Shown one piece after another: positions 13,077 through 42,548 of a DNA stretch of 46,897 bases (its first letter is position 1; each line of letters starts with the position of its first letter). The translations under genes and the position numbers were made by a program. This stretch comes from an uncultured Candidatus Saccharibacteria bacterium (GTDB taxonomy: Bacteria; Patescibacteriota; Minisyncoccia; UBA6257; WO2-44-18): NCBI GenBank assembly GCA_964360605.1, contig CAYHXN010000003.1, positions 1 through 46,897 of the forward strand, written 5' to 3'. The notes beneath the pieces were generated by a model. The model was not told the origin of the DNA. It ran no database searches and saw nothing but the letters and a program-made list of their open reading frames with translations.

Positions 13077-13077
13077 A

Positions 13078-16818: not shown

Positions 16819-16819
16819 A

Positions 16820-23872: not shown

Positions 23873-23983
23873 GGGCGCAGAACCTAAATAATACACGCTC
23901 GTTAGTATTGGAGTGGCTTTAAGGTAGGGCATAAGCCTTGCCGCCCTCTAAGCGAGTGACGTTTACCAAAGAAGGAGAGACCT

Positions 23984-24712: not shown

Positions 24713-24730
24713 TAGCCCAAAACAACAATG

Positions 24731-24765
24731 CCCCGTCCGTCAACCGACGGACGGGGCCTCTTTTT
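24731..24765 (+). terminator. strong intrinsic terminator of the right GC-rich gene
   Basis: 11-bp stem CCCCGTCCGTC-aacc-GACGGACGGGG, then CCTCTTTTT. Confidence 0.8.
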
Positions 24766-24804
24766 AAAATTTAAAACGGAGAACTTGGCCCTTGATTCAT
24801 GATT

Positions 24805-24860
24805 TCCCGCCACCGATTCAATAATTTTTCAGAAGGCGGGATCCCGCCAACGGCGGGACA
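24805..24860. repeat. CCCGCC/GGCGGG double-hairpin repeat, right copy
   Basis: TCCCGCCAC-N17-AGAAGGCGGGATCCCGCCAACGGCGGGACA. Its reverse complement matches 13021-13076 (30-bp and 9-bp perfect blocks). Confidence 0.9.
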
Positions 24861-24961
24861 TACTTCATGATTCCAGAGCTAAGTCCTTCGACAACTAAAT
24901 AAGCGCCTAGCTATCGTCTGAGCTAGGCTAGCCCAAGAAGGACGTTTTAAAAGGAGTTCTT

Positions 24962-26866: not shown

Positions 26867-28792
26867 ATGACAAAACCAAGCAATCTAAATGAACGCCAAC
26901 AAGAGGCGGTAAACCACAAAAACGGCCCGCTTTTGATTGCCGCCGGAGCCGGATCCGGGAAAACAAAAACTCTGACCAGTCGGCTCGCCGCCTTAATAGC
27001 GGACGGGATAAAACCGGAAAATATAATCGCCATTACATTTACCAATAAGGCGGCGGAGGAAATGCGTAATCGGACTAGTAGAATATTTAATGCGCCAAGC
27101 GACAAGGACAAAAACATTCAACATGTCACATTGAACAATGCGCTATTTGTCGGCACCTTCCACTCTCTCGGCGCTCGGATCTTGAAAAAAGAAGCGAAGC
27201 TCGTCGGCCGCAATTCTAACTTCACGATTTTTGACGAAGACGACGCCTTAAGTTTATTAAAAAAGGTTTTGAAAAATCTGAACTTAAGTAAAGACCAGCA
27301 AAATCCGCTAGCCGCGCGAGCAAGAATTTCCGATGTGAAAAACGAACTTATCAAACCGGAAGAATACCTGAATCCGCGGGAATTAAAAATTTTTGAGGAA
27401 TATGAGCAGGCGCTTTTGAGAAATAATGCTTTTGATTTTGACGACTTAATTGAAAAAGTAGTGGCAATTTTTTCCAAAAATCCGACGGTTTTAGAAAAAT
27501 ATCAAAATCAATTTCAATATATTTTAGTTGACGAGTATCAAGACGTTAATCCATCGCAATATCAACTTGTCAGATTATTAGCCCAAAAAAACCGAAATAT
27601 CAGCGTTGTCGGCGATGATGCGCAGTCTATTTATGCCTTCCGCGGGTCGGACTTCCGAAATTTTTTGAATTTTGAAAAGGATTGGCCGAATGCCAAAGTA
27701 GTTCTGTTGGAACAAAATTACCGCTCTACCTCCAACATTATTACTGCCGCTTCAGCCCTTATTAAGAACAATAAATCCCAAAAACCCAAAGAGTTGTGGA
27801 CGGAAAATACCAGCGGAGATTTAATTAAAGTCGCCGCTTGTGAAGACGCGGAAACAGAAGCGGATTTTATTGCTGAACAGATTGCTTCGTCGCTCCACCA
27901 AGGCAAAGCTCCTCGCAATAACAAAGAATCCGTCATTGCGAGCGCTAGCGAAGCAATCTCTAACACAGCGATTCTCTATCGCACCAATGCCCAGTCCCGC
28001 GCGATTGAACAAGCATTGATTGTGGCCGATATTCCTTACAAAATCTTTGGCGGCTTAAAATTCTATGAAAGAAAAGAGGTTAAAGACGTAGTGGCGGCTT
28101 TACGAATCGCCAATAATCCCAAAGACGAAATCAGCGCCGAACGCTTGATTAAAAATTTCCGCAAAGCCGAAACCGAAAGACTACTTGGAGAATTGCCACG
28201 GCTTGGTAAAACTCTAAAAATTTTGGAATTGATAAACTTTTTCCTCACGGAAACTAGGTATTTTGATTTTCTGGAAAAGAATTTCCCCAACTCCAAAGAA
28301 CGGATAGAAAACATTAATGAGTTAATTGTTTTTGCCTCCGGATTTGAAAATTTAAGCGAATTTTTAGAGCGGGTTTCGCTTTTACAATCAGCCGATCGAC
28401 CTGCTAAAAACACTGTCATTGCGAGCGCTAGCGAAGCAATCTCTAGGGGATCGCCACGCTCTGCTCGCGATGACGGCTTCGCCGTAAACTTAATGACCAT
28501 TCACCTCGCCAAAGGACTGGAATTTGATAATGTCTTCGTCGCCGGTTGCAATGAAGGAATTTTGCCCCACCAAATGTCTTACGGCTCAATGAACGACACC
28601 GAAGAAGAACGCCGTCTGATGTATGTTGCCATGACCCGTGCCCGAAAAAATCTGTATTTAAGTTTTTATAATCTTCCTTCCCGTTTCTTAGGCGAAATTC
28701 CTCCGGAACTAACCGAAGTAAAACAACTAGGAAGACCGAAATATCAAGAACACGAGGAAGATATCTATACCGAAAACGAGGATTATGCCTAG
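26867..28792 (+). CDS. UvrD/PcrA-family superfamily 1 DNA helicase
   Basis: Walker A AGAGSGKTKTLTSR, DEYQD, and further helicase motifs (VVGDDAQSIYAFRG, YRS, TIHLAKGLEFD, YVAMTRA). Confidence 0.9.
   Translation: MTKPSNLNERQQEAVNHKNGPLLIAAGAGSGKTKTLTSRLAALIADGIKPENIIAITFTNKAAEEMRNRTSRIFNAPSDKDKNIQHVTLNNALFVGTFHSLGARILKKEAKLVGRNSNFTIFDEDDALSLLKKVLKNLNLSKDQQNPLAARARISDVKNELIKPEEYLNPRELKIFEEYEQALLRNNAFDFDDLIEKVVAIFSKNPTVLEKYQNQFQYILVDEYQDVNPSQYQLVRLLAQKNRNISVVGDDAQSIYAFRGSDFRNFLNFEKDWPNAKVVLLEQNYRSTSNIITAASALIKNNKSQKPKELWTENTSGDLIKVAACEDAETEADFIAEQIASSLHQGKAPRNNKESVIASASEAISNTAILYRTNAQSRAIEQALIVADIPYKIFGGLKFYERKEVKDVVAALRIANNPKDEISAERLIKNFRKAETERLLGELPRLGKTLKILELINFFLTETRYFDFLEKNFPNSKERIENINELIVFASGFENLSEFLERVSLLQSADRPAKNTVIASASEAISRGSPRSARDDGFAVNLMTIHLAKGLEFDNVFVAGCNEGILPHQMSYGSMNDTEEERRLMYVAMTRARKNLYLSFYNLPSRFLGEIPPELTEVKQLGRPKYQEHEEDIYTENEDYA
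27879..27961. repeat. in-frame palindromic insertion in the helicase gene
   Basis: AGATTGCTTCG (27879-27889) pairs with CGAAGCAATCT (27949-27959). Contains the 30-mer GTCATTGCGAGCGCTAGCGAAGCAATCTCT (27932-27961). Confidence 0.8.
28415..28483. repeat. second in-frame copy of the same repeat in the helicase gene
   Basis: An identical 30-mer at 28415-28444. Partner arm CTCGCGATGAC at 28464-28474. Confidence 0.8.
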
Positions 28793-29585
28793 AAAATTAG
28801 GACAACATTTTTTAGTTAATCGTTCAGCGATTCAAAAAATCATCGCGTCTTTGGAATTAAAAAATGGGGAAGTGGTTATTGAGATCGGGCCCGGGAAAGG
28901 CGCGCTAACTTTTCCATTGGTAAAACAATGCCAAGTGTCAGGTATTAAGTGTCAGGTTATTGGGATAGAAAAAGATTCTTCTCTTATTGAAGATTTGAAA
29001 TTAAAGATTGAAAATTCTAATCACGAATTAATTCACGGCGACGCATTAAAAATGCTGCCAAAAATAATCTTTAATCTTAAATCTTCAATTTTAAATTATA
29101 AAATTGTGGGAAACATTCCTTATTACATTACCGGAAAGTTATTGCGGGTAATCAGTGAATTGGAAAACAAGCCAACGTTGACCGTTCTGACGATTCAACG
29201 GGAAGTTGCCGAAAGAATTATTGCCAAGCCACTAAAAATGAATTTATTGGCCGCGGCAGTGCAATTTTGGGCTGAACCAAAAATTATCGGGTATCTTAAG
29301 CCTTCGGATTTTTCTCCAGCTCCAGAGGTAAAATCGGCAATTATCCAGCTAGATTCTAGGGTACAGTCAATAACCAATAAGGAAACAGAGCGGTACTATA
29401 AATTCATAAAGATCGCCTTTAAACAACCGAGGAAAACCCTCCTCAATAATTTAAGCAGTGGATTAAGTGTGGATAAGTCAAAAATAGCCGAAATTCTCGC
29501 ACAAAACGCCTTAAAATCCGATGTCCGGCCACAAGATTTAAGTATTGAAAAGTTATCCACTTTATCACGCCTGCTGATCCTTTAA
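28785..29585 (+). CDS. rsmA: 16S rRNA (adenine1518/1519-N6)-dimethyltransferase
   Basis: LGQHFLVN and EIGPGKGALT SAM motifs, and NIPYYIT. 8-nt overlap with the helicase gene. Confidence 0.9.
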   Translation: MPRKLGQHFLVNRSAIQKIIASLELKNGEVVIEIGPGKGALTFPLVKQCQVSGIKCQVIGIEKDSSLIEDLKLKIENSNHELIHGDALKMLPKIIFNLKSSILNYKIVGNIPYYITGKLLRVISELENKPTLTVLTIQREVAERIIAKPLKMNLLAAAVQFWAEPKIIGYLKPSDFSPAPEVKSAIIQLDSRVQSITNKETERYYKFIKIAFKQPRKTLLNNLSSGLSVDKSKIAEILAQNALKSDVRPQDLSIEKLSTLSRLLIL

Positions 29586-29606: not shown

Positions 29607-30047
29607 ATGCGCACGGTAATTTTTGCCGCGATTTTTACCTTAGTAATTTCTTTTATTATGGGCACCGCTTCCGTGTCCGCTCTTTCAACACAAAATAATT
29701 ACCCGAACTATTTTAAAAATTCCGATATCAAAGCTAATCCTACGAAATATCTTCGGGAAGCAGTTAAAACCCAGTATTCTATCCCGGAAGCACGGCAACT
29801 TTTAAGATATCTCGCTACTTATCGCGGTTACGAAACGATTTTACGCCAATCTACTATTCACAATCCGCTGGTTTTCCGGCAAGGCGGGATTCCAACCCCA
29901 ACGCTCGTGCCAACCGCGACACCAATACCCGGACCGCCATTTGATATCCAAACTCCGACAGGAGTCATTCCAGGTTGTCTTAATCTTTTGTGTCCGCCAC
30001 CGCAAGGCGCTCTTTGGGTGCTAGGAATTTGTTGGTGCACACCGTAG
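29607..30047 (+). CDS. small secreted protein with a Pro-rich linker and a Cys/Trp-rich C-terminus
   Basis: Signal-like N-terminus. C-terminus GCLNLLCPPPQGALWVLGICWCTP. Confidence 0.5.
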   Translation: MRTVIFAAIFTLVISFIMGTASVSALSTQNNYPNYFKNSDIKANPTKYLREAVKTQYSIPEARQLLRYLATYRGYETILRQSTIHNPLVFRQGGIPTPTLVPTATPIPGPPFDIQTPTGVIPGCLNLLCPPPQGALWVLGICWCTP

Positions 30048-30091
30048 ATAAAATCCAAATTCCAAAATCTAAATGTCAAAGATTAAAGATA

Positions 30092-30805
30092 ATGTCTAAA
30101 GTAATCTCAATTTGTTTGGCCGTGGGGTCGCTGGTGGTGGCCGGTCTTATTATTTTTGATAATCCAATCTCGGTTACCCAAAAATCCCTATCTTTTGAGA
30201 TTCAAAATTCGGAAACCATTAATTCAATTTCCCAACTCCTAATTACTGAATCTAATTCTACCGAAGAAATCGCGAAAAAATTAACCGAGGACATTATCGC
30301 CAAAAATCCCAACGGTCCGGAAACAGGAAATGACGGAGGACTTTTGTCTTTATCCAATCCCGATAAAATTATTTCGGAAATGCTGGCAGATTCCTTATCT
30401 AAATTTGATTACGATTCCTTAAAACCGGATATTTCTGATAAAGAAATGATTATTTTGTCCGCGGATGACGAAAAATCCAGAACTTCTTATTTAGAATCGT
30501 TAAATGAGATTGTCTCGGATGAGCTTTCCTCTTTGCCAAAGCAACCGGAAGTTGACCAATTTGGAGCTATTGCCGCGGCTTATGACAGAGCAGTAAAAAA
30601 ACTTTATAACCTACCGGTACCAAAATCTTTTAGCTCTATTCATAAAGAGACGGTTCGCCTCTTTTTCGCGCAGGAAAAAATCTTCTCTTATATTGCCGAT
30701 TATCAAAACGATCCGTTAACGGCTTTATTATCGCTTCAGGCGACTGATTTAGTTTCTGAAGAACTGGCGGCGCTTAATGATAAATTTAATTCTTTGAATC
30801 AATGA
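30092..30805 (+). CDS. hypothetical membrane-anchored protein
   Basis: Start trimmed to the ATG at 30092 (MSKVISICLAVGSLVVAGLIIF). ATGA overlap with the next gene. Confidence 0.5.
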   Translation: MSKVISICLAVGSLVVAGLIIFDNPISVTQKSLSFEIQNSETINSISQLLITESNSTEEIAKKLTEDIIAKNPNGPETGNDGGLLSLSNPDKIISEMLADSLSKFDYDSLKPDISDKEMIILSADDEKSRTSYLESLNEIVSDELSSLPKQPEVDQFGAIAAAYDRAVKKLYNLPVPKSFSSIHKETVRLFFAQEKIFSYIADYQNDPLTALLSLQATDLVSEELAALNDKFNSLNQ

Positions 30806-32199
30806 GAAAATTTTTTGGTAAAATTTTAATCATTGCTTTTTGGGGAAGCATATTGGCAGGAACGATGCCTATTTCCACGAAAGCATCTATTCCCACGATT
30901 GAAACTAACGCTGCCGTAATCGCTTCGGAAGTAACTGTCGCGAATATTAAGTCTGTTAAAGAGCCGATAGAAAAAGTTTTGTTGAACATTCTAAAACGCA
31001 CTCTTTTGAATCAAATCGTAAACCAAATTACTTCTTACATTGAGGGTAACGGCGACCCGAAATTTATTACCGATTGGCGGGGATTTTTGAGTCAGGCCGC
31101 GGACAACGCGGCTGGAGAATTTATTAATTCCACCGCCTTGGGTTTTGTCTGCTCGCCTTTTAACCTTCAACTGCGGATAGCGCTTTCGCCTGTGAAAAAA
31201 TTTGACGACCAAGTAAGCTGTTCGCTTACTCAAATTGTCGGCAACGTGGAAGCGTTTTATAACGACTTTAGAACCGGAGGCTGGATCGGATATGCCGAAT
31301 CCTGGGCTCCTCAAAATAATTTTATAGGTGTTCTTTTAATGAGCTCTATTGAACTGGAAAAACAAAAAGCGGCGGCGGTATCCGCGGCTCAGTCTGAAGG
31401 CATTGCCGGCGGCGGATTTCTTTCAATTAAAAAATGCGATGAAAACGGCAAAAACTGCCAGACCACGACTCCGGGAAGAGTAGTTGGAGACTTAGTTGGA
31501 GAAGCAGTGGGCTCGGACATCGCGATGATTGTAAATGCCACCGAACTTAGCGACTATGTCGGCGCCATCGCGGACGCTTTTGTTAATCGTTTGGTGCGCG
31601 AGGGAGTCAACGGGCTCCGGGGAGTCTCTTCAAAACCGGGGGGAGGTGTTCAGCCAATCGGCGCCGTTACCCAAAATTGCGGCGGACTTTCTGGAACAGC
31701 AAGGCAAAATTGCCTAAATTTCATTCAGGCAAATCAAAATTCTTTTAATACCGCGAGGGCCAATCTTTTAGACCAAGTTAATCAAACTCTGGTTCCCCGC
31801 CAAACAATTGCAACCCTTATTAACGATATTATTGCCCTTGAAAATAAACTTATCAATAAACTTCAGGAGCTTTATTCCTGTAGGCCGCGGGAATCCACAA
31901 ATGAAGAAATAATTAAAGAACAAGCGATTGTAAATACCCTGAAGGCTGCTCAAAATGAAAATCAGCTGATTATCGAAGAGGCGCAATTCGCTATCAGCGA
32001 TATGAGGGCGGTTCCCACCGGCGACTGGGCATCTCTTTCCCAGACAGAAACAAAATATGGCGATAAATTTAATCCTACTGCCGCTAGCGACCTTCTTGCC
32101 GATATACAAGAAGAATATGACGCGACCAAAGTGTTAGTAGATTCAAGGGTTAGCGAGTTAAATACCGAAATAGCAATATGCAGAGGAATACCATTTTAA
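30802..32199 (+). CDS. hypothetical secreted 465-aa protein
   Basis: Signal-like N-terminus. Translationally coupled to both neighbours. Confidence 0.55.
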   Translation: MRKFFGKILIIAFWGSILAGTMPISTKASIPTIETNAAVIASEVTVANIKSVKEPIEKVLLNILKRTLLNQIVNQITSYIEGNGDPKFITDWRGFLSQAADNAAGEFINSTALGFVCSPFNLQLRIALSPVKKFDDQVSCSLTQIVGNVEAFYNDFRTGGWIGYAESWAPQNNFIGVLLMSSIELEKQKAAAVSAAQSEGIAGGGFLSIKKCDENGKNCQTTTPGRVVGDLVGEAVGSDIAMIVNATELSDYVGAIADAFVNRLVREGVNGLRGVSSKPGGGVQPIGAVTQNCGGLSGTARQNCLNFIQANQNSFNTARANLLDQVNQTLVPRQTIATLINDIIALENKLINKLQELYSCRPRESTNEEIIKEQAIVNTLKAAQNENQLIIEEAQFAISDMRAVPTGDWASLSQTETKYGDKFNPTAASDLLADIQEEYDATKVLVDSRVSELNTEIAICRGIPF

Positions 32200-34181
32200 A
32201 AAAAATAGGGTTGGTTGCTCTACTGTTCGTCTTATTGCCGACAGCTTCTTTCGCGTTAGATGTCCAAGCAAAGGCAGAGAGCTCTTGGTGGAATCCAGCC
32301 GCTTGGGTTGAGGGCTTTTTTACTTGGACATCCAACGCCATTGTCTATGTTGTTAATTATATTGCCGCGGCTTTAATCGGTTATGCCGCCGTGGCGATTA
32401 AAATGCTTTTGGACCTTAGTCGGCAGCTCACTAATCTGGATTTTGTAAAGGAAGGATTTAAAGTTGTCTTAAGTTTAACTAACTTAGGGTTTGTTCTCGC
32501 CATTATTGTCATTGCTATTGCCACTATCTTGAGAATTGAAAATTACGCCATCAAAAAAACCTTGTGGAAGTTGATTGTGGCGGCGCTGTTGGTAAATTTT
32601 AGCTTTGTTCTAGTCACTCCGATTATTAGTTTTTCCAATACCTTGGGATTTTTCTTCATTAAAGCAACTGTTCCGGATGGCCCAGGCACTGCCAGTTTTG
32701 AAAATTATACCTCTAACTTGGCCAATGCCCTAAACATCCAAAAACTTAGCCTGAATACACCGGCTGAAAATAGCCTTAGTGGGGCGGTACTAGCATTCAG
32801 CAAGGGGTATCTCCAAACCATAGCCACTAGCGCCTTAGTGCTTATTTTTAACGTCGGCCTTGTTCTTTCTTTCTGGGGATTAGCTTTCATGCTTTTAATC
32901 CGAAATATTTATTTAATGATTCTTTTGGTCTTGATGCCGCTCGCCTGGTTGATGTGGATTTTCCCGGCTTATGAAAAACACTGGAAAGAGTGGTGGGAAA
33001 CATTTTTCAAATGGAATTTATTTTTTCCGGCCGTAGCTTTCTTCCTTTATCTTTCAATACTCACTTCCCAGTCATTGGGGGAAGTAATCAAGGGGACCAG
33101 CGAGAATGCTTCCACGGCGATAAAACAATTAAGTTTCTTGGACGAATTGGGTATTGTTGCCGGCCTCCAGGTTCTTGTCCAGATTTTTATATTAGGTTTT
33201 GGAATTGGCGTGGCTCATAAAATGGGAATTGATGGTTCGGAGGGAATAATGAAAATGACCGGCGCGGCCAGAGGTTGGATTACGGGAATGGCTGGAAAAT
33301 TGGCGCGAGCGCCTTTGAAGGGCGCCGCAATGGGTGCGGCGGCCGCTGGAAAAGAATACGGGACTAGACCCGCAAAATTTGGGGCGCGATTATTGTCCAG
33401 TGCGTTATCTTCTCCATTACTACGCCGGATTCCTGGCGCTACAGGAGCGGCTAATGCCCTAGCGGGCATCGGCCAACGCCAAGGAGAAGTTGAAGAATAC
33501 CAGAAGAAAAATTTTGCAAATCTTTCTAAAGAGCAATTTGAGAGCTATATGAAATCCCCGCCACTTGGGCCAATAGCTCAAGCCGCTGTTTTGGCTGAAG
33601 CTGCTAAACGAGGAATGATCGGCAAATTTACACCGGAGCAGCTAGAAAAATTAGCTAACGCCGCTAAAGCGACAAATCCGGGAATGCCTCCGGAAGCGAT
33701 TCCAACCATTAAAGAAATTCTGGCCGTTGATCCAACTTTAGCGCCAAAACTAACTGTGGATTCCAAAACCGGAAAATCAATGAGTATTGTAGACGCGATG
33801 AAAAAGATGGCCGACGACAAGTTTGATCAAATAGAAAAAGATGCTTTGAAAAACAGGGATGTTCTCCTAAACATTAACCCTGGAAAGATGGCGGCTGGAA
33901 TCAGAAAAGGAAATCAATCACTCAGAGACACCTTAAAAACAGAGTTAGAAAAGATTCTTGTTGGCACTCAACTTGCTGCTGTTGGCGAAGCTATCGCGAA
34001 AACGATGAAAGAACTAAAGGATGCTAAACAAATCGGCGATAAAACAGAAACACAGCGGCTGCAATTGCAATTAAAAACTTTCAGAACAACTCTTCAGTCA
34101 GAACGTAACAAAGCCACCGCCGATCAAGGTTCGGCTTATGATAAATTGGCTTTATTTAATCAAATAATCGGAAATCCTTAA
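32178..34181 (+). CDS. polytopic membrane protein in the VirB6/TrbL position
   Basis: Signal peptide, then at least 6 TM helices and a long hydrophilic C-terminal tail. Assigned by architecture and context only. Confidence 0.5.
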   Translation: MQRNTILKKIGLVALLFVLLPTASFALDVQAKAESSWWNPAAWVEGFFTWTSNAIVYVVNYIAAALIGYAAVAIKMLLDLSRQLTNLDFVKEGFKVVLSLTNLGFVLAIIVIAIATILRIENYAIKKTLWKLIVAALLVNFSFVLVTPIISFSNTLGFFFIKATVPDGPGTASFENYTSNLANALNIQKLSLNTPAENSLSGAVLAFSKGYLQTIATSALVLIFNVGLVLSFWGLAFMLLIRNIYLMILLVLMPLAWLMWIFPAYEKHWKEWWETFFKWNLFFPAVAFFLYLSILTSQSLGEVIKGTSENASTAIKQLSFLDELGIVAGLQVLVQIFILGFGIGVAHKMGIDGSEGIMKMTGAARGWITGMAGKLARAPLKGAAMGAAAAGKEYGTRPAKFGARLLSSALSSPLLRRIPGATGAANALAGIGQRQGEVEEYQKKNFANLSKEQFESYMKSPPLGPIAQAAVLAEAAKRGMIGKFTPEQLEKLANAAKATNPGMPPEAIPTIKEILAVDPTLAPKLTVDSKTGKSMSIVDAMKKMADDKFDQIEKDALKNRDVLLNINPGKMAAGIRKGNQSLRDTLKTELEKILVGTQLAAVGEAIAKTMKELKDAKQIGDKTETQRLQLQLKTFRTTLQSERNKATADQGSAYDKLALFNQIIGNP

Positions 34182-34186
34182 ATTTT

Positions 34187-34807
34187 ATGGTCAATAATAC
34201 TACAACTCAATCTTCGATTCTGCATCCACTCAGAACAGCTTTCGAAAAACTTCCTCAACCGATTCAAGAATGGCTGACTTCGGTTCAGGTTACAAACGTA
34301 ATTATTGAAATGAATAAACGACTTAATATGGTGGGAGATTTAGTAAAAATTATTCCGAATTATCTGATTTTACGGCTAGTAGTCGGGGATCTAAAACCGG
34401 AAAATTTTGTTAAAGAATTTCTTGATGAATTAGATATAGACGAATCCGAAGCGATAAAATTAACTACTGAAATCTACCAAAAAATTTTAAAGCCGATTGA
34501 GCCGTCGCTTCGTTCTAGTGTTAATGTAGATGTCGCGAAACTTTTTACGGCTAATCTCGCTTCTCAATCAATACCAAGAATCGTTCCTGCTTTACCCCGG
34601 CCAACGCAGCCGGAAATGGTTCGGCCTAACTCGCCACAGATGATTCAGCCTTTCAGCGAACTCAAGACGAATCCGTCACAAATGGTTCGACCAAGCTCAC
34701 CGCAAGTTTTCAAAATTCCGAATATAGGATCAATTCCAACACACGACGACGAACCGAAAAAAGTACATTATAGCAATATGAAAACAATTTTAAAAGATAA
34801 AATATAA
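34187..34807 (+). CDS. hypothetical protein with a repeated QxMVRPxSPQ C-terminal motif
   Basis: Track ORF. No TM helix and no recognised domain. Confidence 0.5.
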   Translation: MVNNTTTQSSILHPLRTAFEKLPQPIQEWLTSVQVTNVIIEMNKRLNMVGDLVKIIPNYLILRLVVGDLKPENFVKEFLDELDIDESEAIKLTTEIYQKILKPIEPSLRSSVNVDVAKLFTANLASQSIPRIVPALPRPTQPEMVRPNSPQMIQPFSELKTNPSQMVRPSSPQVFKIPNIGSIPTHDDEPKKVHYSNMKTILKDKI

Positions 34808-34823
34808 AATTAAGGAATGACTC

Positions 34824-34900
34824 CCCGCCGATGGCGGGATGCTCATGTTTGTGGCTAAATTTTAGAGCTACACATGAGCCCTAAAATTTAGACAAACATG
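34824..34900 (+). promoter_or_regulatory. structured intergenic RNA with mutually exclusive helices; one sequesters the next start codon
   Basis: CCCGCC-gat-GGCGGG (34824-34838). GCTCATGT (34841-48) / ACATGAGC (34872-79), versus CATGTTTGTggCTAAATTTTAG (34844-65) / CTAAAATTTAGACAAACATG (34881-34900). Confidence 0.5.
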
Positions 34901-35371
34901 GCACAATTTCAAGTACCACAATTTATAGAAACCGAAGATAAGATTATTGGCTCAATGACGCTAAAACAATTTGCGTATATTGCCGCCGCGGGAATGTTGA
35001 GTTTTCTTCTATTTTTCGTACTTCGCTTCGGTTTTTGGCTGGTGATAACGGTGATCCTAAGCATAAGCGCGGCATCGCTGGCGTTTCTAAAATACAATGG
35101 GCAACCGCTTCCTAAAATACTCGGTTCGGCAATTAAATACACGCTCTACCCAAAACTTTATCTTTGGAAAAGAACTACTGCGCAAACCGAGCCGCCGGAA
35201 ATAAATGTGCCGGAATTAAGATCGGAGGCCGTGTCTCCGCTAAAAAGAATCTGGCTGAAAATCAATACCGTTATTCATCCTATTCAACAACGCAGTAAAG
35301 AAAAGAAGATGGATTCGTACAGGCAAACTATTCAACAAAAACAAATGGCAAGGAGAGTGGATTACCGCTAA
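34898..35371 (+). CDS. PrgI/VirB3-like small membrane protein
   Basis: MAQFQVPQFIETEDKIIGSMTLKQF followed by two TM helices, the pattern of PrgI-family proteins. Immediately upstream of VirB4. Confidence 0.6.
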   Translation: MAQFQVPQFIETEDKIIGSMTLKQFAYIAAAGMLSFLLFFVLRFGFWLVITVILSISAASLAFLKYNGQPLPKILGSAIKYTLYPKLYLWKRTTAQTEPPEINVPELRSEAVSPLKRIWLKINTVIHPIQQRSKEKKMDSYRQTIQQKQMARRVDYR

Positions 35372-35380
35372 AATTAAACT

Positions 35381-36046
35381 ATGGCCCAACAAACTTCGCA
35401 GCCCTCTCAAAAACTGGTGAGTATTGAAGAAATCCGGAACGGAATCGTTATTTTAAAAAACGGCGCCTTGCGTCAAATTCTGATGGTTTCCGGAGTGAAC
35501 TTTGATTTGAAATCAGAAGAAGAGCAGGGATTGATTCTTTACGGATATCAAAACCTATTGAATGCTTTGGATTTCTCCATACAATTTTTTATTCACTCCA
35601 GGAAAATCAACATTGAAGGATACTTGGAAAAGTTAACTGGTCGCGAGGAGCAGGAAACTAACGACCTTTTAAAGAATCAGGTTCGAGAATACCGCGAATT
35701 TATTCGTTCTTTCGTCACGGAGAATCCTATTATGCAGAAAAGTTTTTTCGTCGTTATCCCTTACGACCCCATTCAAGTTCCGGAAGCGGCGTTGAAAGTA
35801 GGTAGGGGACTATTTAGCATTTTCCGTAAAAAAACTCCGATATCAACAGGACAGGAAAAAGAACAGCAGTTGGAAAAAGGATTGACCCAATTAAGCCAGC
35901 GTCTAGAACAAGTAATCAACGGGCTCTCGGCAATCGGATTAACCGCGGTCGCTTTAGACACAAATTCCGTTACCGAACTTTTCTACAATCTTTATAATCC
36001 CGAAGCAATTGAGAAAGTAATGCGACAAACAACAAGTGACAAGTAA
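35381..36046 (+). CDS. VirB4 N-terminal domain encoded as a separate ORF
   Basis: LVSIEEIRNGIVILKNGALRQILMVSGVNFDLKSEEEQGLILYGYQNLLNALDFSIQFFIHS resembles the N-terminus of Gram-positive VirB4/TcpF-type ATPases. Confidence 0.55.
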   Translation: MAQQTSQPSQKLVSIEEIRNGIVILKNGALRQILMVSGVNFDLKSEEEQGLILYGYQNLLNALDFSIQFFIHSRKINIEGYLEKLTGREEQETNDLLKNQVREYREFIRSFVTENPIMQKSFFVVIPYDPIQVPEAALKVGRGLFSIFRKKTPISTGQEKEQQLEKGLTQLSQRLEQVINGLSAIGLTAVALDTNSVTELFYNLYNPEAIEKVMRQTTSDK

Positions 36047-36047
36047 C

Positions 36048-37751
36048 ATGGACCAACAATTTAAAGACTTAATCGCCCCGCCAGCATTGGAAATTGACTC
36101 CAATTATTTAAAGCTTGGGAAAAAATTTTCCAAAACTTTGTTTTTATTTTCTTATCCCCGCTATCTCTCCAGCGGTTGGTTCTCCCCAATAATTAACTTG
36201 CCGGAACTTTTAGATATTTCAATTTTCGTTCATCCGATAGACACCGGCTTGGCTCTTAAAAAACTTCGGAAAAAAGTAACCCAAATTCAATCACAGTTAA
36301 GCGAGCAGGAAGAGAAGGGATTAGTGCGCAATCCGGTTCTAGAAACCGCTTACCGAGACATTGAAACTCTGCGCGACGCACTCCAAACTTCCCAAGAAAA
36401 TCTTTTTAATGTCGGAGTTTACGCCACTATTTACGCTGATACGCTGGAAGGAATTAACAAATTAGAAGCGCATATTACCAATCTTCTAGAAAGCCGATTG
36501 ATTTACGTGAAACCCGCCATATTCCAGCAGTTGGAGGGTTTTGGTTCAACTATTCCTCTCGGCAACGACATTCTTTCTATCCATACTCCGTTAAACTCCA
36601 GTCCTGTTTCTTCATTTTTCCCATTCGCTTCCGCGAGCCTTACTTCCGACGATGGAATTCTCTATGGATTGAACCGCCATAATAATACCCTTATTATCTT
36701 TGACCGCTTTTCTTTGGAAAACGCTAATATGGTGATTTTCGCCAAGTCCGGTGCCGGAAAATCCTACGCCACCAAACTGGAAACGCTCCGTCTTTTAATG
36801 CTGGGAACGGATGTAATAATCGTTGATCCGGAAAACGAATATCTTAACCTTGCCAATTCTGTTGGGGGAAGTATTTTTAAAATCGCCCTTACCTCTAACG
36901 ACAACATCAATCCCTTTGATATTCCGAATATCCCCAAGGACGAAGACCCGAACGAAGTTTTACGATCCCATATCGTTAACTTAACCGGACTTATAAAAAT
37001 GATGCTGGGGGAGATCACTTCCGAGGAGGAAGCGATGCTGGACCAGGCAGTCAGCGAAACCTACGCCGCGCGTGATATCGTCCCGGGAAAGGATTTTAGT
37101 CACGCCGAACCGCCGCTTTTGGAAGACTTGGAAAAAGTCTTGGCTAATATGAAGGGCGGCCACGATTTAGCGCAACGGCTTTATCGCTTCACCAAGGGCA
37201 GTTTTGCCGGCTTTACCAATAAACCGACTAACATTGACGTCAAAAACCGCTTGATGGTTTTTTCCATCCGCGATCTAGAAGAAGAACTCCGGCCGATTGC
37301 CATGTATATCATTCTTAACTTCATCTGGAATCTTATCCGGTCAGAATTGAAAAAAAGAGTGTTATTGGTAGACGAAGCTTGGTGGATGATGAAATATCCG
37401 GAAGGTGCCGCCTTTTTATTCAGCTTAGTGAAGAGGGCACGCAAATATTATCTTGGCGTTACAACCATTACTCAAGATGTTGAAGATTTCCTAAATTCCC
37501 CGTTCGGGCGTCCGATTATTACTAACTCTTCTTTACAACTTTTACTGAAACAAGCTCCGGCCAGCATGGATTTGGTTTCTAAAGCGTTTAATCTTACGGA
37601 ATTTGAGAGAAATCTTTTATTGGAAGTCGGCGTCGGACAAGGACTGTTTTTTGCCGGACCAAACCACGTGGCTATTCAGATTATCGCTTCCTATTTAGAA
37701 GACCAGATTATCACTACGAAGCCCGAACAAGTCCTGCAAACGCAGGGATAA
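36048..37751 (+). CDS. virB4: VirB4-family T4SS ATPase (C-terminal two thirds)
   Basis: Walker A FAKSGAGKSYATK and Walker B LLVDEAWWMM. The ATG at 36048 is 1 nt after the previous stop, in a different frame. Confidence 0.8.
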   Translation: MDQQFKDLIAPPALEIDSNYLKLGKKFSKTLFLFSYPRYLSSGWFSPIINLPELLDISIFVHPIDTGLALKKLRKKVTQIQSQLSEQEEKGLVRNPVLETAYRDIETLRDALQTSQENLFNVGVYATIYADTLEGINKLEAHITNLLESRLIYVKPAIFQQLEGFGSTIPLGNDILSIHTPLNSSPVSSFFPFASASLTSDDGILYGLNRHNNTLIIFDRFSLENANMVIFAKSGAGKSYATKLETLRLLMLGTDVIIVDPENEYLNLANSVGGSIFKIALTSNDNINPFDIPNIPKDEDPNEVLRSHIVNLTGLIKMMLGEITSEEEAMLDQAVSETYAARDIVPGKDFSHAEPPLLEDLEKVLANMKGGHDLAQRLYRFTKGSFAGFTNKPTNIDVKNRLMVFSIRDLEEELRPIAMYIILNFIWNLIRSELKKRVLLVDEAWWMMKYPEGAAFLFSLVKRARKYYLGVTTITQDVEDFLNSPFGRPIITNSSLQLLLKQAPASMDLVSKAFNLTEFERNLLLEVGVGQGLFFAGPNHVAIQIIASYLEDQIITTKPEQVLQTQG

Positions 37752-37779
37752 TACCAAGGTTCGTATTAACAATTATTTT

Positions 37780-38175
37780 ATGGGTCCTAAAATTTCAACA
37801 ACCGAAGCGATGTTCCTTATAATGGCCGGCGTGGTCGCCGACCTTATTAACTGGATACCGGTAGTGAATTGGATTGTGGCTATCTTTATGTTTCCGATTA
37901 CCCAGCTCTACTTTAGAATGAAAGGCGTAAGGGGGCAGTACGCTTTAATCGGAAACATAATGGAATTGATTCCGGGATTAAGCGTTCTTCCGGCTTACAC
38001 CATTGCTATGGTCGCCACTATTTATTTAGACCGACATCCGGAATTGATGACTAAGGGACAACAAGGAGTTCTAAAAGAAAAAATGGGGCAAACTTCTGCT
38101 TCTAAAGAAATAAAATCAGCCGCTCCGGTAGCTCAAAAGTCAAAAAGGATAACAGAAGTAATCAAGAAAGTTTAA
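37780..38175 (+). CDS. small polytopic membrane protein
   Basis: About three TM helices and a basic C-terminal tail. Confidence 0.5.
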   Translation: MGPKISTTEAMFLIMAGVVADLINWIPVVNWIVAIFMFPITQLYFRMKGVRGQYALIGNIMELIPGLSVLPAYTIAMVATIYLDRHPELMTKGQQGVLKEKMGQTSASKEIKSAAPVAQKSKRITEVIKKV

Positions 38176-38177
38176 AA

Positions 38178-38846
38178 ATGAAAAACTATAATCTAAAATT
38201 TAAAACGGGGTTTTACTTTTTAGTTGTCATTTTTACTTTTTCTTTTTTATTTTTTCATTTAGTAACCGCGCAGGCGACACCGGAATTTATGGTTAGCTGG
38301 AAGGCCGATTCTTATGTTCCATCGGATTATCGGGGAAAAATTCTACCCTCGCCGTCTTCTTCAATAGAGATGGCGTTTGAGCTTATAGATGGTGGCCGAA
38401 TAGCAAATATCTCCAATAACCAAGTCCGGTGGTACGTGAATGGACGACTTTATCGCTCCGGCGCTGGATTAAAAAGTATCACCTACGTGCCGGCCCAGTT
38501 TGATCGCCAAAATCGGGAGGCGCATATTGAAATTATCGGTTATCGGGGCTTGAACTTAGAAAAGCGATTTACTGTACCAGTAGCGGAACCGAGCGTGGTT
38601 ATCGTTCCCATCAGCCAAAACGAATTTCGGGCTTTGCCGTATTTCTTTAATATCTCCTCATTCAACCAGCTTCAATTTGATTGGCGGGCTAACGACCTTG
38701 CTCCGGAAAATATCGCGGAACATCCGGATTTATTGACTTTAAGCAATCTTGCTCCCGGACTTCCAATATCGTTGTCAGTAACCGTTAAAAACTTAAATGA
38801 GATTCTAGAAATAGCCGGAACATCGTTAAACTTCATCACGCAATGA
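38178..38846 (+). CDS. hypothetical secreted/membrane-anchored protein
   Basis: N-terminal hydrophobic segment ending in TAQA. ATGA overlap with the next gene. Confidence 0.5.
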   Translation: MKNYNLKFKTGFYFLVVIFTFSFLFFHLVTAQATPEFMVSWKADSYVPSDYRGKILPSPSSSIEMAFELIDGGRIANISNNQVRWYVNGRLYRSGAGLKSITYVPAQFDRQNREAHIEIIGYRGLNLEKRFTVPVAEPSVVIVPISQNEFRALPYFFNISSFNQLQFDWRANDLAPENIAEHPDLLTLSNLAPGLPISLSVTVKNLNEILEIAGTSLNFITQ

Positions 38847-39895
38847 GGAATCAACGAATAATAAATCAATACGAATCTACGAATGTAGCAAAACGCCTTG
38901 TATTTTCATTTATTACTGTGTCTATTCTCTATTCTCTATGCTCTATTCTCTTAACGCAGTCAGTTTTTGCGCAAAATAATTCCATTAATAAACCAGCCCT
39001 AGAAGGCTCTTATAAAATTCCTATCCTTACTGAAACCGGAAAAATTCAATACCCGGATCTAAATACGATTACCGATCCTGCGAAACTCGTTTTGACGATT
39101 TTCCAATTTGCCATGGGCGCCGCCGGTATTTTAGCAATAGGAATGATTGTTTTTGGGGGAATCCAATACACCGTTTCCGCCGGTAATCCGGCGATGCAAA
39201 AAGACGCCCGCGATCGGATTTTGAACGCGATCTATGGAGTCGCTCTTCTTTCCGGCTCATTTCTTATTTTGAACACTATTAATCCAAAGCTCGTTAAATT
39301 AAGTACTCCGAAACTAACATCGTTAAATATAGATCTTAATCAGTTAGACGCGGAGAAGGCGCGAAAAGCCTGGAGAGAGGCCGACGAAAAACTAGGACTT
39401 GCTCAGCACGAAGAGCTAGTTTTAAGAGATAAATTCACAAAGGCGCAAGCGAAGGTTGGCACTGGGAAAACCGATTTAGAAAATTTACAATTTAAGACCG
39501 AAGCCCAAAGATTAGTAGTGGAATTAGCTGAAAAAGATTTGGAGAAGCAAAATCTTGCTATTGTACTTCAAAGAAGGGACGCGGAAATAGAAAAAGAGAG
39601 AATAATCTCTAAAATGAGAAAGGAGATACCCGATTTTTCCAAACACTTCCCGGATATTTACAGTACCGATAAGTTTGGGGTGAATAGCTTAAGAAGAACG
39701 ATAACGAACCCTCCCGAAAACACGATACCGCCTTACCTTAAAGAAAAATTAATAAATGAACTTCGGGTATATGAACAATCCTACTCGGCAATAGCTCCTT
39801 TAGAGAAAAAAATTAATGAGTCTGTAATAAATTTAGCGGAAGAACAAAGGCGTTTACAAGAAGTTGAGGAGGAGTGGTCTAAAGCGAAAAAATAA
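38843..39895 (+). CDS. VirB2/TrbC-like T4SS pilin domain fused to a long coiled-coil C-terminal region
   Basis: FQFAMGAAGILAIGMIVFGGIQYTVSAGNPAMQKDARDRILNAIYGVALLSGSFLILNTINP matches the two-helix pilin pattern. The remaining 200 aa or so are K/E-rich. Confidence 0.6.
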   Translation: MRNQRIINQYESTNVAKRLVFSFITVSILYSLCSILLTQSVFAQNNSINKPALEGSYKIPILTETGKIQYPDLNTITDPAKLVLTIFQFAMGAAGILAIGMIVFGGIQYTVSAGNPAMQKDARDRILNAIYGVALLSGSFLILNTINPKLVKLSTPKLTSLNIDLNQLDAEKARKAWREADEKLGLAQHEELVLRDKFTKAQAKVGTGKTDLENLQFKTEAQRLVVELAEKDLEKQNLAIVLQRRDAEIEKERIISKMRKEIPDFSKHFPDIYSTDKFGVNSLRRTITNPPENTIPPYLKEKLINELRVYEQSYSAIAPLEKKINESVINLAEEQRRLQEVEEEWSKAKK

Positions 39896-39897
39896 AC

Positions 39898-40995
39898 ATG
39901 AAAAAGATTATTCTAATAATTTCTATAACGATTTCTGTTCTCGTATTAGTCTTTGTCGTCTGGCGCTTATTAATTCTATCTCAACCGACAACGGACTCCT
40001 CTATGTTAGACGAGGAGGAAACTGCTTCTGGTAAATTACAATTATTATCCAGTGAACCCATTTTTGGGTTCTGGATTGATTTGAGCGGAAATATTTATAC
40101 GGTTTTAGAAAACGGCGCGATTAGCAGACTTTCTCAAGACGGAAAACTGGAACCGCTCTCCGAGCAATCAATACCAAGCATTAGCTCCGTGAATCCCTCG
40201 TCGGACGGGTTAAGAACAATTATTTCTTTCGGTTATCCTACAAAAGAAAGTTTTTCGGTTTTTGATACTAAGACAAACCGATTCATACCCCTATCGGAAG
40301 GAACCTCCAGCGCCGACTGGCATCCCTCTTCTTCAGACCGCCTAGTTTATATTCAAAACCGCGGCGAAAAAAACGTTATTTCAACTTTTACCGTTTCGTC
40401 GCAAAAAAGTTCGGAATTAATAACCCTGTCTCAAAAAGGCCTGCGCTTGGACTGGGCGTCGCCAGAAGAAATTTATCTTTTTGACTTACCGGATAATAAA
40501 TCAACGGGCTCGCTGTGGACATTAAATATCTCCACAAAAACACTAAGGCCGATAATTAAAGAAGAATCTGGGCTTATGACTAAATGGTTCTCTAATAACT
40601 CTTTTGGCTTAAAACTAAGCTTCGTCAACCAACTGCCGTCTTTAGAAATTATAGACCAACAGAATAGAACGCTCGCTAAATTGCCTTTCGTTGGGTTACC
40701 GTCCGAATGCGCCGAAGCTCTCTCCGAAAACCGAATTTATTGCGCCATTCCGGATGCCCAGGACAACCTAAACGGGTTCCTCCGAAGATATCTTAAAAAA
40801 GAAGATTTTTACGCCGATTCTGTTTACGCGATACCTACTAATATCGGGATTGATCAGCGTCTAGAAAATGCCGTCATGCCAATCTCCAGTCCTGCGTTAG
40901 ACGCCAACGTTGATATCTCCGAATTATCCGCTTATAACGGCGATCTCTATTTTATTAACCGAGCCGATCGGTTGCTTTACCGTTTAGATTTATAA
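39898..40995 (+). CDS. membrane-anchored protein, possibly beta-propeller-like
   Basis: N-terminal TM helix. Repeated S-x-DG / hydrophobic strand patterns. Weak call. Confidence 0.45.
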   Translation: MKKIILIISITISVLVLVFVVWRLLILSQPTTDSSMLDEEETASGKLQLLSSEPIFGFWIDLSGNIYTVLENGAISRLSQDGKLEPLSEQSIPSISSVNPSSDGLRTIISFGYPTKESFSVFDTKTNRFIPLSEGTSSADWHPSSSDRLVYIQNRGEKNVISTFTVSSQKSSELITLSQKGLRLDWASPEEIYLFDLPDNKSTGSLWTLNISTKTLRPIIKEESGLMTKWFSNNSFGLKLSFVNQLPSLEIIDQQNRTLAKLPFVGLPSECAEALSENRIYCAIPDAQDNLNGFLRRYLKKEDFYADSVYAIPTNIGIDQRLENAVMPISSPALDANVDISELSAYNGDLYFINRADRLLYRLDL

Positions 40996-41004
40996 AACCA
41001 ATTC

Positions 41005-41034
41005 TTGACTAGAAAGCCTTTGAATTGATATTAT
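41005..41034 (+). promoter_or_regulatory. candidate promoter TTGACT-N18-TATTAT, 7 nt upstream of an ATG (leaderless candidate)
   Basis: TTGACT at 41005-41010 and TATTAT at 41029-41034. ATG at 41042 with no SD. Confidence 0.4.
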
Positions 41035-41041
41035 TTAACAC

Positions 41042-42331
41042 ATGAATACAGAAAGATTTTCTCCCGGAGATTTCCTCCGAGAGCAAGAGGGGGATAAATT
41101 TGATGTTAGCGAGGCGTTGAATAACAAAGATTTCTTAGAATTTTTGACAAAGTACGGGGACGCCGAATCGTTTGATTCGAGCGAAGCCAATACCCAGGAA
41201 ATAGAAAAACGCTTTCAATCATTTGAATCAAAGAATGCTTCCGCAGCGGCATTAAAAGCTTTTTATAAAAAAGAAGTTATAGAGAAAACCATTATCGGGG
41301 GCGAAGCGAAGGGGTGGGAAAAACCGGTTGATGAATATATTGAAAAGGTTGCTATTGAAAATCCGGAGCTTATGACGCTTATCCATGAGACTCTGTACAA
41401 AAAGCAGGAAGCTGAAAAAGAAATAGAGTCTAGAACTTTAGAAATCAAGGATATTCTAAGATTAATTGCCGGAAAAGAGTCTCTAGAAATTATGAAATTT
41501 TCTTTAAAAGACGCGCTTGAGCGCTCGGCCGATCAGGCTCGGGATCTACTTAATCTGGAGAAAAGCAAAAAAGAGGCGTTAGTTCGCCAAAGCGAAAAAG
41601 CTGGTAGATTGGTAGAAATAAAGCGGTCTATGACCGGAGTTAGAGGTCTTTTTAATTTTAAAAACTTTGCCGTAATCGGCTGGATATTCCGCAACCCCGA
41701 AGAAAGAGAGGCGAAGAGGAGGCCGAAGCAGGAACTAGAGGCAATTGCTAAAATCCTAGAAAAATCTTTAAAAAAATCGGAAGAGAAGAAGTTGCCGGAG
41801 CTGGAATCCAACGTTAAAATCTTGACCGAAGTCCTTGAAACCGAAAAGTTAGCGGGGATGGCCAAGGCGGTATTGTTGGATATTTTGCCAACTGGGCAAA
41901 TGGTGAAAGAAAAAGCGGCTCAACATGTTTCTAAATTTATGGAGTCACTAATTAGTTCAAAAGGCAAGAAAGAGTTGGGAGAAAAACCGCTGGAAGAATT
42001 ATTATCAATAAAAAAATCTTTAGAAGACGCTGTATCAGAAGGTGAAGCTTTAAAAATTATGGAGCAAGTAGACGGCGAAAAAACCGAAAAAGCGATGGGC
42101 CAATTAGAAGTAGCTATAGAAAATAGGGTTACTAAAGAAATAATGGATTCGGTTTTTTCCGCCAAGCTTAAATCTAGGCCACTGGAAGAAATGGAAAAAA
42201 TAATAAAAGGATACTTGGACAAACCGTTGAACGAATCGGCTAAAAAAGCTTTGGAGCTTATTCTAAAAAGCCCCAGAGTTTCTCCAGAGAAAAAAATCTT
42301 GCTTAAAAAAATTCTTTTAGAGAAGTTTTAA
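41042..42331 (+). CDS. K/E-rich, probably coiled-coil, cytoplasmic protein
   Basis: Track ORF, 429 aa, no TM helix and no recognised domain. Confidence 0.5.
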   Translation: MNTERFSPGDFLREQEGDKFDVSEALNNKDFLEFLTKYGDAESFDSSEANTQEIEKRFQSFESKNASAAALKAFYKKEVIEKTIIGGEAKGWEKPVDEYIEKVAIENPELMTLIHETLYKKQEAEKEIESRTLEIKDILRLIAGKESLEIMKFSLKDALERSADQARDLLNLEKSKKEALVRQSEKAGRLVEIKRSMTGVRGLFNFKNFAVIGWIFRNPEEREAKRRPKQELEAIAKILEKSLKKSEEKKLPELESNVKILTEVLETEKLAGMAKAVLLDILPTGQMVKEKAAQHVSKFMESLISSKGKKELGEKPLEELLSIKKSLEDAVSEGEALKIMEQVDGEKTEKAMGQLEVAIENRVTKEIMDSVFSAKLKSRPLEEMEKIIKGYLDKPLNESAKKALELILKSPRVSPEKKILLKKILLEKF

Positions 42332-42344
42332 AAAAAATAAACAT

Positions 42345-42536
42345 ATGCAAAAACCAGATTTAGAAAAATATCTAACGGAGGAAATGAGTAATGAGCAAAA
42401 GGGAGCCCTGCACGTTAATCTTGCCCTAGTTTATCTTCAAACTCTGAATAATATAAACGAGCGTTATTTAGAAATGCTCAAAGAAACCACGGAAACTCTT
42501 AAAAGAATCAGTAAGAAAATTGAAAAATCCGCCTAA
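42345..42536 (+). CDS. small hypothetical protein
   Basis: 63-aa track ORF. The terminator overlaps its stop. Confidence 0.4.
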   Translation: MQKPDLEKYLTEEMSNEQKGALHVNLALVYLQTLNNINERYLEMLKETTETLKRISKKIEKSA

Positions 42537-42548
42537 AGCGGATTTTTT
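42525..42548. terminator. bidirectional hairpin terminator shared by convergent genes
   Basis: AAATCCGC-ctaaa-GCGGATTT with T runs on both strands. Confidence 0.65.

Follow-up and report, generated by a model that had tools for sequence, protein, structure and literature searches.

A locus beside dnaA that very probably encodes the Paceibacteria version of the Patescibacteria type IV secretion system

The type IV secretion systems (T4SSs) of Patescibacteria have been the subject of several recent studies. In Ca. Southlakia epibionticum, Wang et al. 2023 (Cell, PMC10633639) located T4SS and pilin genes at SEML1_0006-0019, without any recognisable coupling protein or relaxase, and transposon sequencing (Tn-seq) found these genes to be essential for epibiotic growth. 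A survey of 3,035 genomes of Patescibacteria by Quinonero-Coronel et al. 2025 (Microb Genom, PMC12102498) reported VirB4 in 2,417 of them, most of the sequences forming a single monophyletic clade nested in the FATA class of mating-pair formation systems (MPF-FATA). According to this survey, TrsD, PrgI/VirB3, VirB6 and VirB2-like pilins are encoded near virB4, the TrsD and VirB4 pair being the most frequent T4SS feature of the phylum. Relaxases were found in only 103 of the 3,035 genomes, and homologues of the VirD4-type coupling protein (T4CP) in most genomes, mostly distant from virB4. In Paceibacteria and Microgenomatia, the locus adjoins dnaA, dnaN, rnpA, ksgA and rpmH. The survey infers a repurposed system, possibly for import, and states that an unlinked T4CP homologue and comEC are reported as dispensable in S. 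epibionticum. A 2025 review of T4SSs lists the Patescibacteria systems as a distinct novelty, a 2024 perspective qualifies their role as 'completely unknown', and reviews propose uptake or effector delivery. Here, we describe a gene cluster at positions 29607-42536 of a 46,897-nt stretch of DNA, hereafter the window, from an assembly deposited as an uncultured Candidatus Saccharibacteria bacterium (GCA_964360605.1, contig CAYHXN010000003.1). This cluster is very probably the Paceibacteria (Parcubacteria/'Harrisonbacteria'-like) version of the Patescibacteria-clade T4SS, vertically inherited, originating from monoderm conjugation machinery of the MPF-FATA CD1110 type, and devoid of a linked relaxase or a locus-encoded coupling protein. 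This confidence concerns the identity of the system, not the direction of transport.

The system itself is already published (2023-2025), with the same architecture, flanking genes and functional inference. A previous reading of the window, made from the sequence alone, had presented the cluster as a poorly described system, which these publications contradict; its view of a chromosomal and probably non-conjugative machine for host contact or exchange is the published one (PMC12102498, PMC10633639). Among the machines of candidate phyla radiation (CPR) bacteria, the Patescibacteria T4SS is one of few whose essential role in the epibiotic lifestyle has been shown. The window provides a Paceibacteria example that is clean and whose conserved core is defined (30092-40995), and no new system type. 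To what is known, we add this core, predicted folds for two accessory proteins, the size of the o3 protein family described below, and the observation that VirB4 is conserved above DnaA.

The cluster comprises 14 open reading frames (ORFs), not fifteen as first counted, which are all encoded on the + strand and, as proposed, tightly packed, with gaps of -22 to +90 bp between neighbours. This list matches the gene calls on the same public contig for the portion that those calls cover. The ATPase body of VirB4, of the CD1110/MPF-FATA type, is encoded at 36048-37751 (+). Profile searches report a match with the NCBIfam CD1110-family VirB4 (NF045971; E 6e-110, 368.8 bits for a cutoff of 325, model positions 183-733 out of 752), as well as matches with PF19044, PF12846 and the VirB4 C-terminal domain of PDB entry 4ag5 (E 4e-42). 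The Walker A (GAGKSYATK) and Walker B (LLVDEAWW) motifs are intact. Upstream of it, 35381-36046 (+) encodes a TrsD-like protein, the VirB4 N-terminal domain as a gene of its own, which matches VirB4_plasma (E 1.5e-9), TrsD NF041427 (E 7.6e-8; 32 bits for a cutoff of 200) and positions 3-118 of the CD1110 model, all below the curated cutoffs. This protein aligns with residues 39-161 of a 797-residue clostridial VirB4, and its precomputed Pfam family is PF26593 (TraC-like). The ATG of the virB4 body lies 1 nt past the TrsD stop codon, and the coding sequence is interrupted within the linker that joins the N-terminal domain to the remainder of VirB4. Both parts are fused into a 783-793 residue protein in relatives that are 73-77% identical. 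In the 78 species-representative loci that contain both parts, adjacent to each other, the gene is split in 73 and fused in 5. The Walker motifs and profiles bear out the earlier notion of a VirB4 in two pieces but, judging from the sequences compared, the gene is not broken, and two genes are the standard arrangement and not a defect. Because the TrsD score is far below the cutoff and close relatives are fused, the split looks as if fission or fusion at a domain boundary had taken place within the VirB4 lineage of Patescibacteria, and not like a sign of staphylococcal TrsD orthology. Among the best 120 database matches to VirB4, all those that carry a name belong to Patescibacteria/Parcubacteria, as do the 80 species loci introduced below (57-87% identity). 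The best plasmid VirB4s are monoderm CD1110-family proteins with at most 34% identity to that of the window. Regarding the archaeal Ced DNA-import system, the profiles return only local P-loop matches, with 33.7 bits for CedB (cutoff 700) and 19.5 for CedD (cutoff 600), which do not identify a Ced-type ATPase.

Relatives of this VirB4 were sought in a single genome for each GTDB species. The scan yielded at least 592 loci, of which the best 80 (VirB4 identities of 57%-75%) were used. Their specific labels are Harrison-, Jorgensen-, Kaiser-, Nomura- and Taylorbacteria, Paceibacterota and Parcubacteria, the others being generic or 'Candidatus Saccharibacteria'. Forty-two of these 80 loci possess complete 10-kb flanks and are referred to as full loci. 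PrgI, TrsD and VirB4 are present in all 42, YidC and DnaA in 40 each, DnaN in 39, KsgA in 30 and PcrA in 22. Profiling the gene block across relatives, as the sequence-only reading had suggested, thus yields a conserved order in 42 Paceibacteria species loci, PcrA-KsgA-T4SS-Jag-YidC-RnpA-DnaA-DnaN. The gene order of the window is kept in nearly all of them, the exception being one match to the fibronectin III-like protein located upstream of the VirB6-like gene. Matches to hidden Markov models (HMMs) of the orthologues are on the same strand, except for one of the small membrane protein o9, and their offsets from virB4 are mostly consistent. The conserved core comprises, in order, the o2/o3 proteins, the VirB6-like protein, a patchily conserved soluble protein, PrgI/VirB3, TrsD and VirB4, the protein o9, a fibronectin III/immunoglobulin-like (FN3/Ig) protein, the pilin and a TolB-like protein, and is inserted between ksgA and the jag-yidC-rnpA and dnaA-dnaN genes. 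Compared with the closest relative, locus L081, VirB4 is 87% identical (nonsynonymous divergence, dN, 0.085), ahead of DnaA (77%), KsgA (72%) and DnaN (71%). Since synonymous sites are saturated between the two (proportion of synonymous differences, pS, 0.64-0.79), only dN and amino-acid identity are usable and no reliable dN/dS is given. By these measures, VirB4 appears to be under purifying selection and is more conserved than DnaA. The synteny and sequence comparisons depict the locus as chromosomal and vertically inherited, and not as the remnant of an integrative and conjugative element (ICE).

Two further T4SS components are recognised above the gathering scores of Pfam, so that the VirB4 body, PrgI and the pilin, for whose assignments profile searches had been proposed as a check, all exceed their cutoffs. 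The PrgI/VirB3-like membrane protein at 34898-35371 (+) matches PF12666 (E 1e-12, 48.9 bits for a cutoff of 27) and lies immediately 5' of the TrsD gene in every full locus. The VirB2-like pilin at 38843-39895 (+) matches PF18895 (E 1e-9, 38.5 bits for a cutoff of 26.6) and also the Mbov_0395 pilin-like family (E 5e-4). Its hydrophobic segments (residues 19-37, 86-104 and 126-144) correspond to a signal peptide and two transmembrane (TM) helices, the pilin domain covering residues ~84-144, and the second TM helix is followed by a coiled-coil-like C-terminal extension of ~200 residues. A canonical VirB2 is ~100-120 residues long. This ORF is the only one with a pilin domain in the window, and relatives mostly have one copy, with ORFs of 99 to more than 1000 residues and a median of ~270 (uncurated ORF starts). 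The small membrane protein o9 was considered as a second pilin and ruled out, as it shows no similarity to the pilin.

The polytopic membrane protein at 32178-34181 (+) displays ~7-8 hydrophobic segments within residues 10-343, followed by a hydrophilic C-terminal extension of ~320 residues, as in an 'extended VirB6'. Its HMM matches 36 of the 42 full loci, and its gene lies directly on the 5' side of the PrgI region, as in the clostridial plasmid order VirB6-PrgI-x-VirB4. Its topology and position thus fit the VirB6/TrbL role first proposed for it, but its profile matches are all sub-threshold. It matches the CD3337/EF1877 mobilome membrane family below the cutoff (E 8e-4), 4 of 39 orthologues match TrbL/VirB6 PF04610 (best E 2.7e-4), and TrbL_3 is the precomputed assignment of the closest orthologue, that of L081, which is about 36% identical. 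An hhalign comparison of its profile with the clostridial CD1112 VirB6 was not significant.

The window copy shares with the other Patescibacteria-clade systems an MPF-FATA VirB4, a TrsD-like protein encoded separately, PrgI/VirB3 and a PF18895 pilin, together with a putative VirB6-like protein, as well as a chromosomal position beside dnaA, dnaN, ksgA and rnpA, and a locus without relaxase or T4CP. It differs from S. epibionticum, which has a six-gene pilin array, by its single pilin gene with a long C-terminal extension, and from the published Patescibacteria T4SSs by the lack of a lysozyme or peptidase gene directly 3' of virB4. The genes of the FN3/Ig, TolB-like and o3-family proteins fall outside all the T4SS profiles searched and, to our reading, are not named in PMC12102498 or PMC10633639. 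The monoderm CD1110/CTn2 system of the Clostridium botulinum plasmid pCDC3875 (NZ_KJ776578.1) is similar in its VirB6-PrgI-VirB4 order, in its CD1110 VirB4 (~31% identity) and in the absence of an outer-membrane core complex. The full order in CD1110-type plasmids is VirD4-VirB6-PrgI-x-VirB4-x-SLT. However, pCDC3875 encodes a CD1115 VirD4-like coupling protein, an SLT transglycosylase of 957 residues, a single VirB4 of 797 residues and a MOBP relaxase, and no pilin, whereas the window has a two-gene VirB4 and a VirB2-like pilin and is devoid of coupling protein, SLT and relaxase. The trs region of the Staphylococcus plasmids pGO1/pSK41 also has a small TrsD, homologous to the VirB4 N-terminus, beside the VirB4 ATPase (TrsE), but the TrsD-like protein of the window scores 32 bits for a family cutoff of 200, and its close relatives are fused. 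Lastly, the Helicobacter pylori ComB system has no relaxase, VirD4 or VirB11, and contains VirB2-, VirB3-, VirB4- and VirB6-like parts. Being a diderm system, it also includes the VirB7-10 core parts, and it acts together with ComEC. Its DNA uptake is cited in the 2024 perspective as a functional precedent for import. Between ComB and the window, no sequence relationship was seen other than membership of both in the VirB4 family, though no search aimed at one was made. S. epibionticum requires its T4SS, whereas its comEC is reported as dispensable.

Pfam scans of every larger ORF of the window (at least 100 residues) return no VirD4/TcpA, relaxase, VirB11, SLT transglycosylase or integrase, in agreement with the absences first listed, which for the coupling protein hold at the level of the locus. 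Nor does the repeat search report any notable inverted repeat of the oriT type, or direct, att-type repeats flanking the cluster. An ordinary ICE extending just outside, which had been envisaged, was not found: on the source contig (Hainich groundwater, ENA ERZ1292623), the 4 kb that follow dnaN carry the genes of PBP1A, RuvC and YebC, and neither a relaxase, a T4CP nor an integrase. A single wall hydrolase is encoded close to the cluster, a membrane-anchored M23+LysM peptidoglycan hydrolase at 25790-26842 (-), 2.8 kb upstream and on the opposite strand. Its gene is found at the corresponding position in at least six related loci (L002, L015, L022, L024, L066 and L067). This hydrolase could open the wall for the cluster, which has no such enzyme of its own, or be an ordinary cell-division hydrolase, and we regard its link to the T4SS as unproven, given its location at the edge of the fetched flanks and its detection in six loci.

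Around the recognisable components, several accessory proteins belong to the conserved core. The o2 protein (30092-30805, +) has an N-terminal TM anchor and is apparently helix-rich, judging by its sequence. Homologues are found at the same position in 10 close loci. Its gene overlaps by 4 nt that of o3 (30802-32199, +), its likely partner, and the two homologues are fused into ORFs of 725-731 residues in loci L009 and L014. The secreted o3 protein, encoded upstream of the VirB6-like gene, begins with a conserved domain that contains Cys and ends in a helical bundle. Its HMM matches 29 of the 42 full loci, always on the + strand and ~6.3 kb upstream of virB4, and its family amounts to 5418 cluster representatives for a threshold of E<=1e-3 and to 2099 for E<=1e-30, with no match in Pfam, NCBIfam or PDB profile searches. 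Word-indexed homologue searches collected 9 proteins for o3 and 4 for the FN3/Ig protein o10, which restricted the quality of their models: the AlphaFold2 model of o3, from a 9-sequence alignment, has a mean confidence (pLDDT) of 56, below 50 in the conserved N-terminal domain, and only residues ~320-460 are better, and helical. The soluble o5 protein (34187-34807, +) has no TM segment, ends in a Pro-rich repeat tail and returns no Pfam or NCBIfam family. It is patchily conserved, with tblastn matches at the same position in 7 loci, and its gene contains a 25-nt direct repeat (34614/34680).

Directly 3' of virB4, o9 (37780-38175, +) is a small polytopic membrane protein with several hydrophobic segments and no Pfam family, 79% identical to its L081 orthologue and matched by its HMM in 27 of the 42 full loci. 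The ensuing o10 protein (38178-38846, +) is modelled as a membrane-anchored, extracytoplasmic protein with two FN3/Ig-like β-sandwich domains. Its AlphaFold2 model (pLDDT 78) exhibits an N-terminal helix and two β domains, for which Foldseek reports tandem FN3/Ig modules in the PDB (CbhA Fn3, 1.3e-4; Hoc; SiiE), and its profile matches Hoc at 1.4e-3. HMM matches occur in 37 of the 42 full loci. A VirB8-like identity was considered for this protein and ruled out on the basis of the modelled fold, tandem FN3/Ig rather than NTF2-like. Downstream of the pilin, o12 (39898-40995, +) is predicted to be a TolB-like β-propeller anchored by an N-terminal TM segment: a profile of 21 orthologues matches TolB in the PDB (E 1.7e-12). 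Its HMM also matches 37 of the 42 full loci, always 3' of the pilin, and in most relatives the TolB-like gene is the last one before jag, which it abuts directly. The o3 family, the small membrane protein, the FN3/Ig protein and the TolB-like protein are therefore conserved accessory proteins that current T4SS profile sets leave unnamed.

The three other ORFs behave differently. The o1 gene (29607-30047, +) encodes a small secreted protein with one N-terminal hydrophobic, signal-like segment and a Cys-rich C-terminus. It has no tblastn match in the 80 related loci and no Pfam or NCBIfam match, and is lineage-specific and probably outside the core. The soluble, Glu/Lys-rich and probably helical o13 protein (41042-42331, +) has no tblastn match in the 80 loci either and a homologue only in L081, 35% identical. 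It is fast-evolving, a promoter-like site of its own is located at 41005-41034, 5' of the gene, and its membership in the machine is doubtful. The 63-residue o14 (42345-42536, +) is called as a gene on the source contig, has no homologue in the same tblastn searches, and is of doubtful significance. On these sequence comparisons, 29607, 41042 and 42345 appear as lineage-specific add-ons outside the conserved block. The initial proposal that about ten uncharacterised components may be structural parts or substrates is not supported for these three, which are absent in most relatives.

The VirB6-like protein, PrgI and o9 would form a membrane translocon, on which the TrsD/VirB4 pair would dock and use ATP to pull pilin out of the membrane and polymerise it into a filament or conduit at the surface. 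The o2/o3 proteins, the FN3/Ig and TolB-like proteins and the C-terminal extension of the pilin, all anchored or secreted and fast-evolving, would then reach across the wall and make contact with the host cell. Most likely, the essential output is contact with the host along with the transfer of material for which no coupling protein is required. We tentatively favour, at slightly below even confidence, a contact or uptake conduit over a coupling-protein-independent export of effectors, because the locus is without T4CP and the unlinked T4CP homologue of S. epibionticum is dispensable. Other roles share the remaining probability. One-way export of effectors or toxins by the same machine, which would manipulate or lyse the host bacterium with 41042 as a candidate substrate, seems to us rather unlikely, though it has been put forward as a speculation for Saccharibacteria (PMC10633639 and the 2024 perspective). 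The 41042 protein is soluble and lineage-specific, 35% identical between genomes whose VirB4s are 87% identical, and has its own promoter-like site, which speaks for this export. However, it is missing from most relatives that retain the machine and carries no recognisable secretion signal, the locus has no coupling protein to recruit cytoplasmic substrates, and no translocated protein with experimental evidence is available in Patescibacteria. A more specific and clearly speculative extension of the conduit, to which we give a low probability, is that the o2/o3 family, FN3/Ig, TolB-like and extended pilin constitute a Paceibacteria-specific host-contact module that turns the T4SS into a feeding or uptake conduit, drawing host macromolecules without a coupling protein. 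If so, the rapid divergence of these proteins from L081 would reflect host-range adaptation: o2, o3, the VirB6-like, FN3/Ig, pilin and TolB-like proteins are about 37-51% identical, for a VirB4 at 87%.

Two other explanations concern the status of the locus itself. A working conjugation or DNA-export apparatus, whose relaxase and VirD4 are encoded elsewhere in the chromosome and whose 'minimal' look reflects the limits of the window, would fit with the VirD4 homologues that most Patescibacteria genomes encode, usually distant from virB4 (PMC12102498). It is nevertheless improbable, given that relaxases occur in only 103 of the 3,035 genomes and that S. epibionticum requires its T4SS but not its unlinked T4CP homologue (PMC12102498), and neither a relaxase or coupling protein, over the 47-kb window and the 4 kb beyond, nor an evident oriT-like repeat is found. 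A nonfunctional, decaying ICE in which the split VirB4 is a frameshifted pseudogene would account for the lack of relaxase, T4CP and integrase in the window, for a VirB4 encoded in two frames and for several orphan ORFs. We exclude such a remnant as extremely improbable because of the shared synteny, between the same housekeeping genes in 42 species-level relatives, and because VirB4 is conserved above DnaA. The split moreover occurs at a domain boundary, with a start 1 nt past the stop, and is common to 73 of 78 loci, the GC content equals that of the host, and flanking direct repeats were not found. With regard to the vertically inherited Patescibacteria T4SS acting as a host-contact or uptake conduit, a few points weigh against it. 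The direction of transport is one that we purely infer, and essentiality is extrapolated by analogy from a different class, Saccharimonadia, to Paceibacteria, where it may or may not hold. A T4CP encoded elsewhere in the genome may work with the locus, the absence of a coupling protein holding for the locus only. In addition, the cluster itself revealed neither a VirB8-like nor a VirB1-like component, the VirB6 assignment depends on sub-threshold matches, and VirB4 is placed in the published Patescibacteria clade purely by similarity.

The cluster is flanked upstream by the housekeeping genes of PcrA/UvrD (26867-28792) and KsgA (28785-29585), and downstream by those of Jag/R3H, YidC and RnpA on the minus strand, then by DnaA (44315-45676) and DnaN. 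The remaining genes of the window encode aspartokinase/homoserine dehydrogenase, TyrRS, ClpP, trigger factor, H+-PPase, NusA, the CCA-adding enzyme and similar proteins. The GC content of the cluster (0.413) matches, as stated before, that of the remainder of the window (0.422). Between the convergent cluster and jag, the terminator scan reports at 42523-42547 a strong hairpin with an 11-bp stem, AAAAATCCGC-TTT-GCGGATTTTT, bordered by A/T runs on both sides, which is likely a bidirectional terminator at the 3' end of the operon. The location next to the replication origin, also proposed from the sequence, is borne out insofar as dnaA/dnaN lie 1.8 kb downstream of the cluster. DnaA boxes are not enriched, however, with 11 consensus matches for 9.4 expected, so that their count is uninformative for placing oriC, and the skew switch is found elsewhere. 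The cumulative GC skew reaches its minimum, with a clean switch of gene strand, at ~13-14 kb of the window: the genes at 925-13768 are all on the minus strand, most of those after 14292 are on the plus strand, and dnaA lies 30 kb further, at 44315. The true origin may not adjoin dnaA, or the skew may merely track gene orientation.

Small selfish insertions vary between the otherwise syntenic loci of L081 and the window. In L081, an inserted gene of the 23S_rRNA_IVP family (133 residues, 8383-8784) separates the o5 homologue from prgI, and PcrA (1-2181) holds an intein (Intein_splicing match). The pcrA gene of the window contains two 40-nt direct repeats (27923-27962 and 28406-28445), 90% identical, in the same frame and 161 codons apart, each with a short palindrome. 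Together with the L081 intein, these repeats suggest that insertions recur in pcrA.

Two GC-rich islands stand out in the window (mean 0.42), at 13000-14000 (0.51) and 24000-25000 (0.58). Each bears an orphan ORF, at 13154-13768 (-) in the first island and at 23984-24712 (+) in the second, where an antisense ORF (23963-24703) mirrors it. These ORFs have no Pfam match, the islands return no Rfam match at E<0.1, and they may be foreign DNA or an undescribed RNA. Lastly, between the tRNA-Lys and tRNA-Arg genes, 16775-20056 (+) encodes a protein of 1093 residues with a Laminin_G_3/concanavalin-like lectin domain, which is, from its domain content, a candidate surface adhesin.

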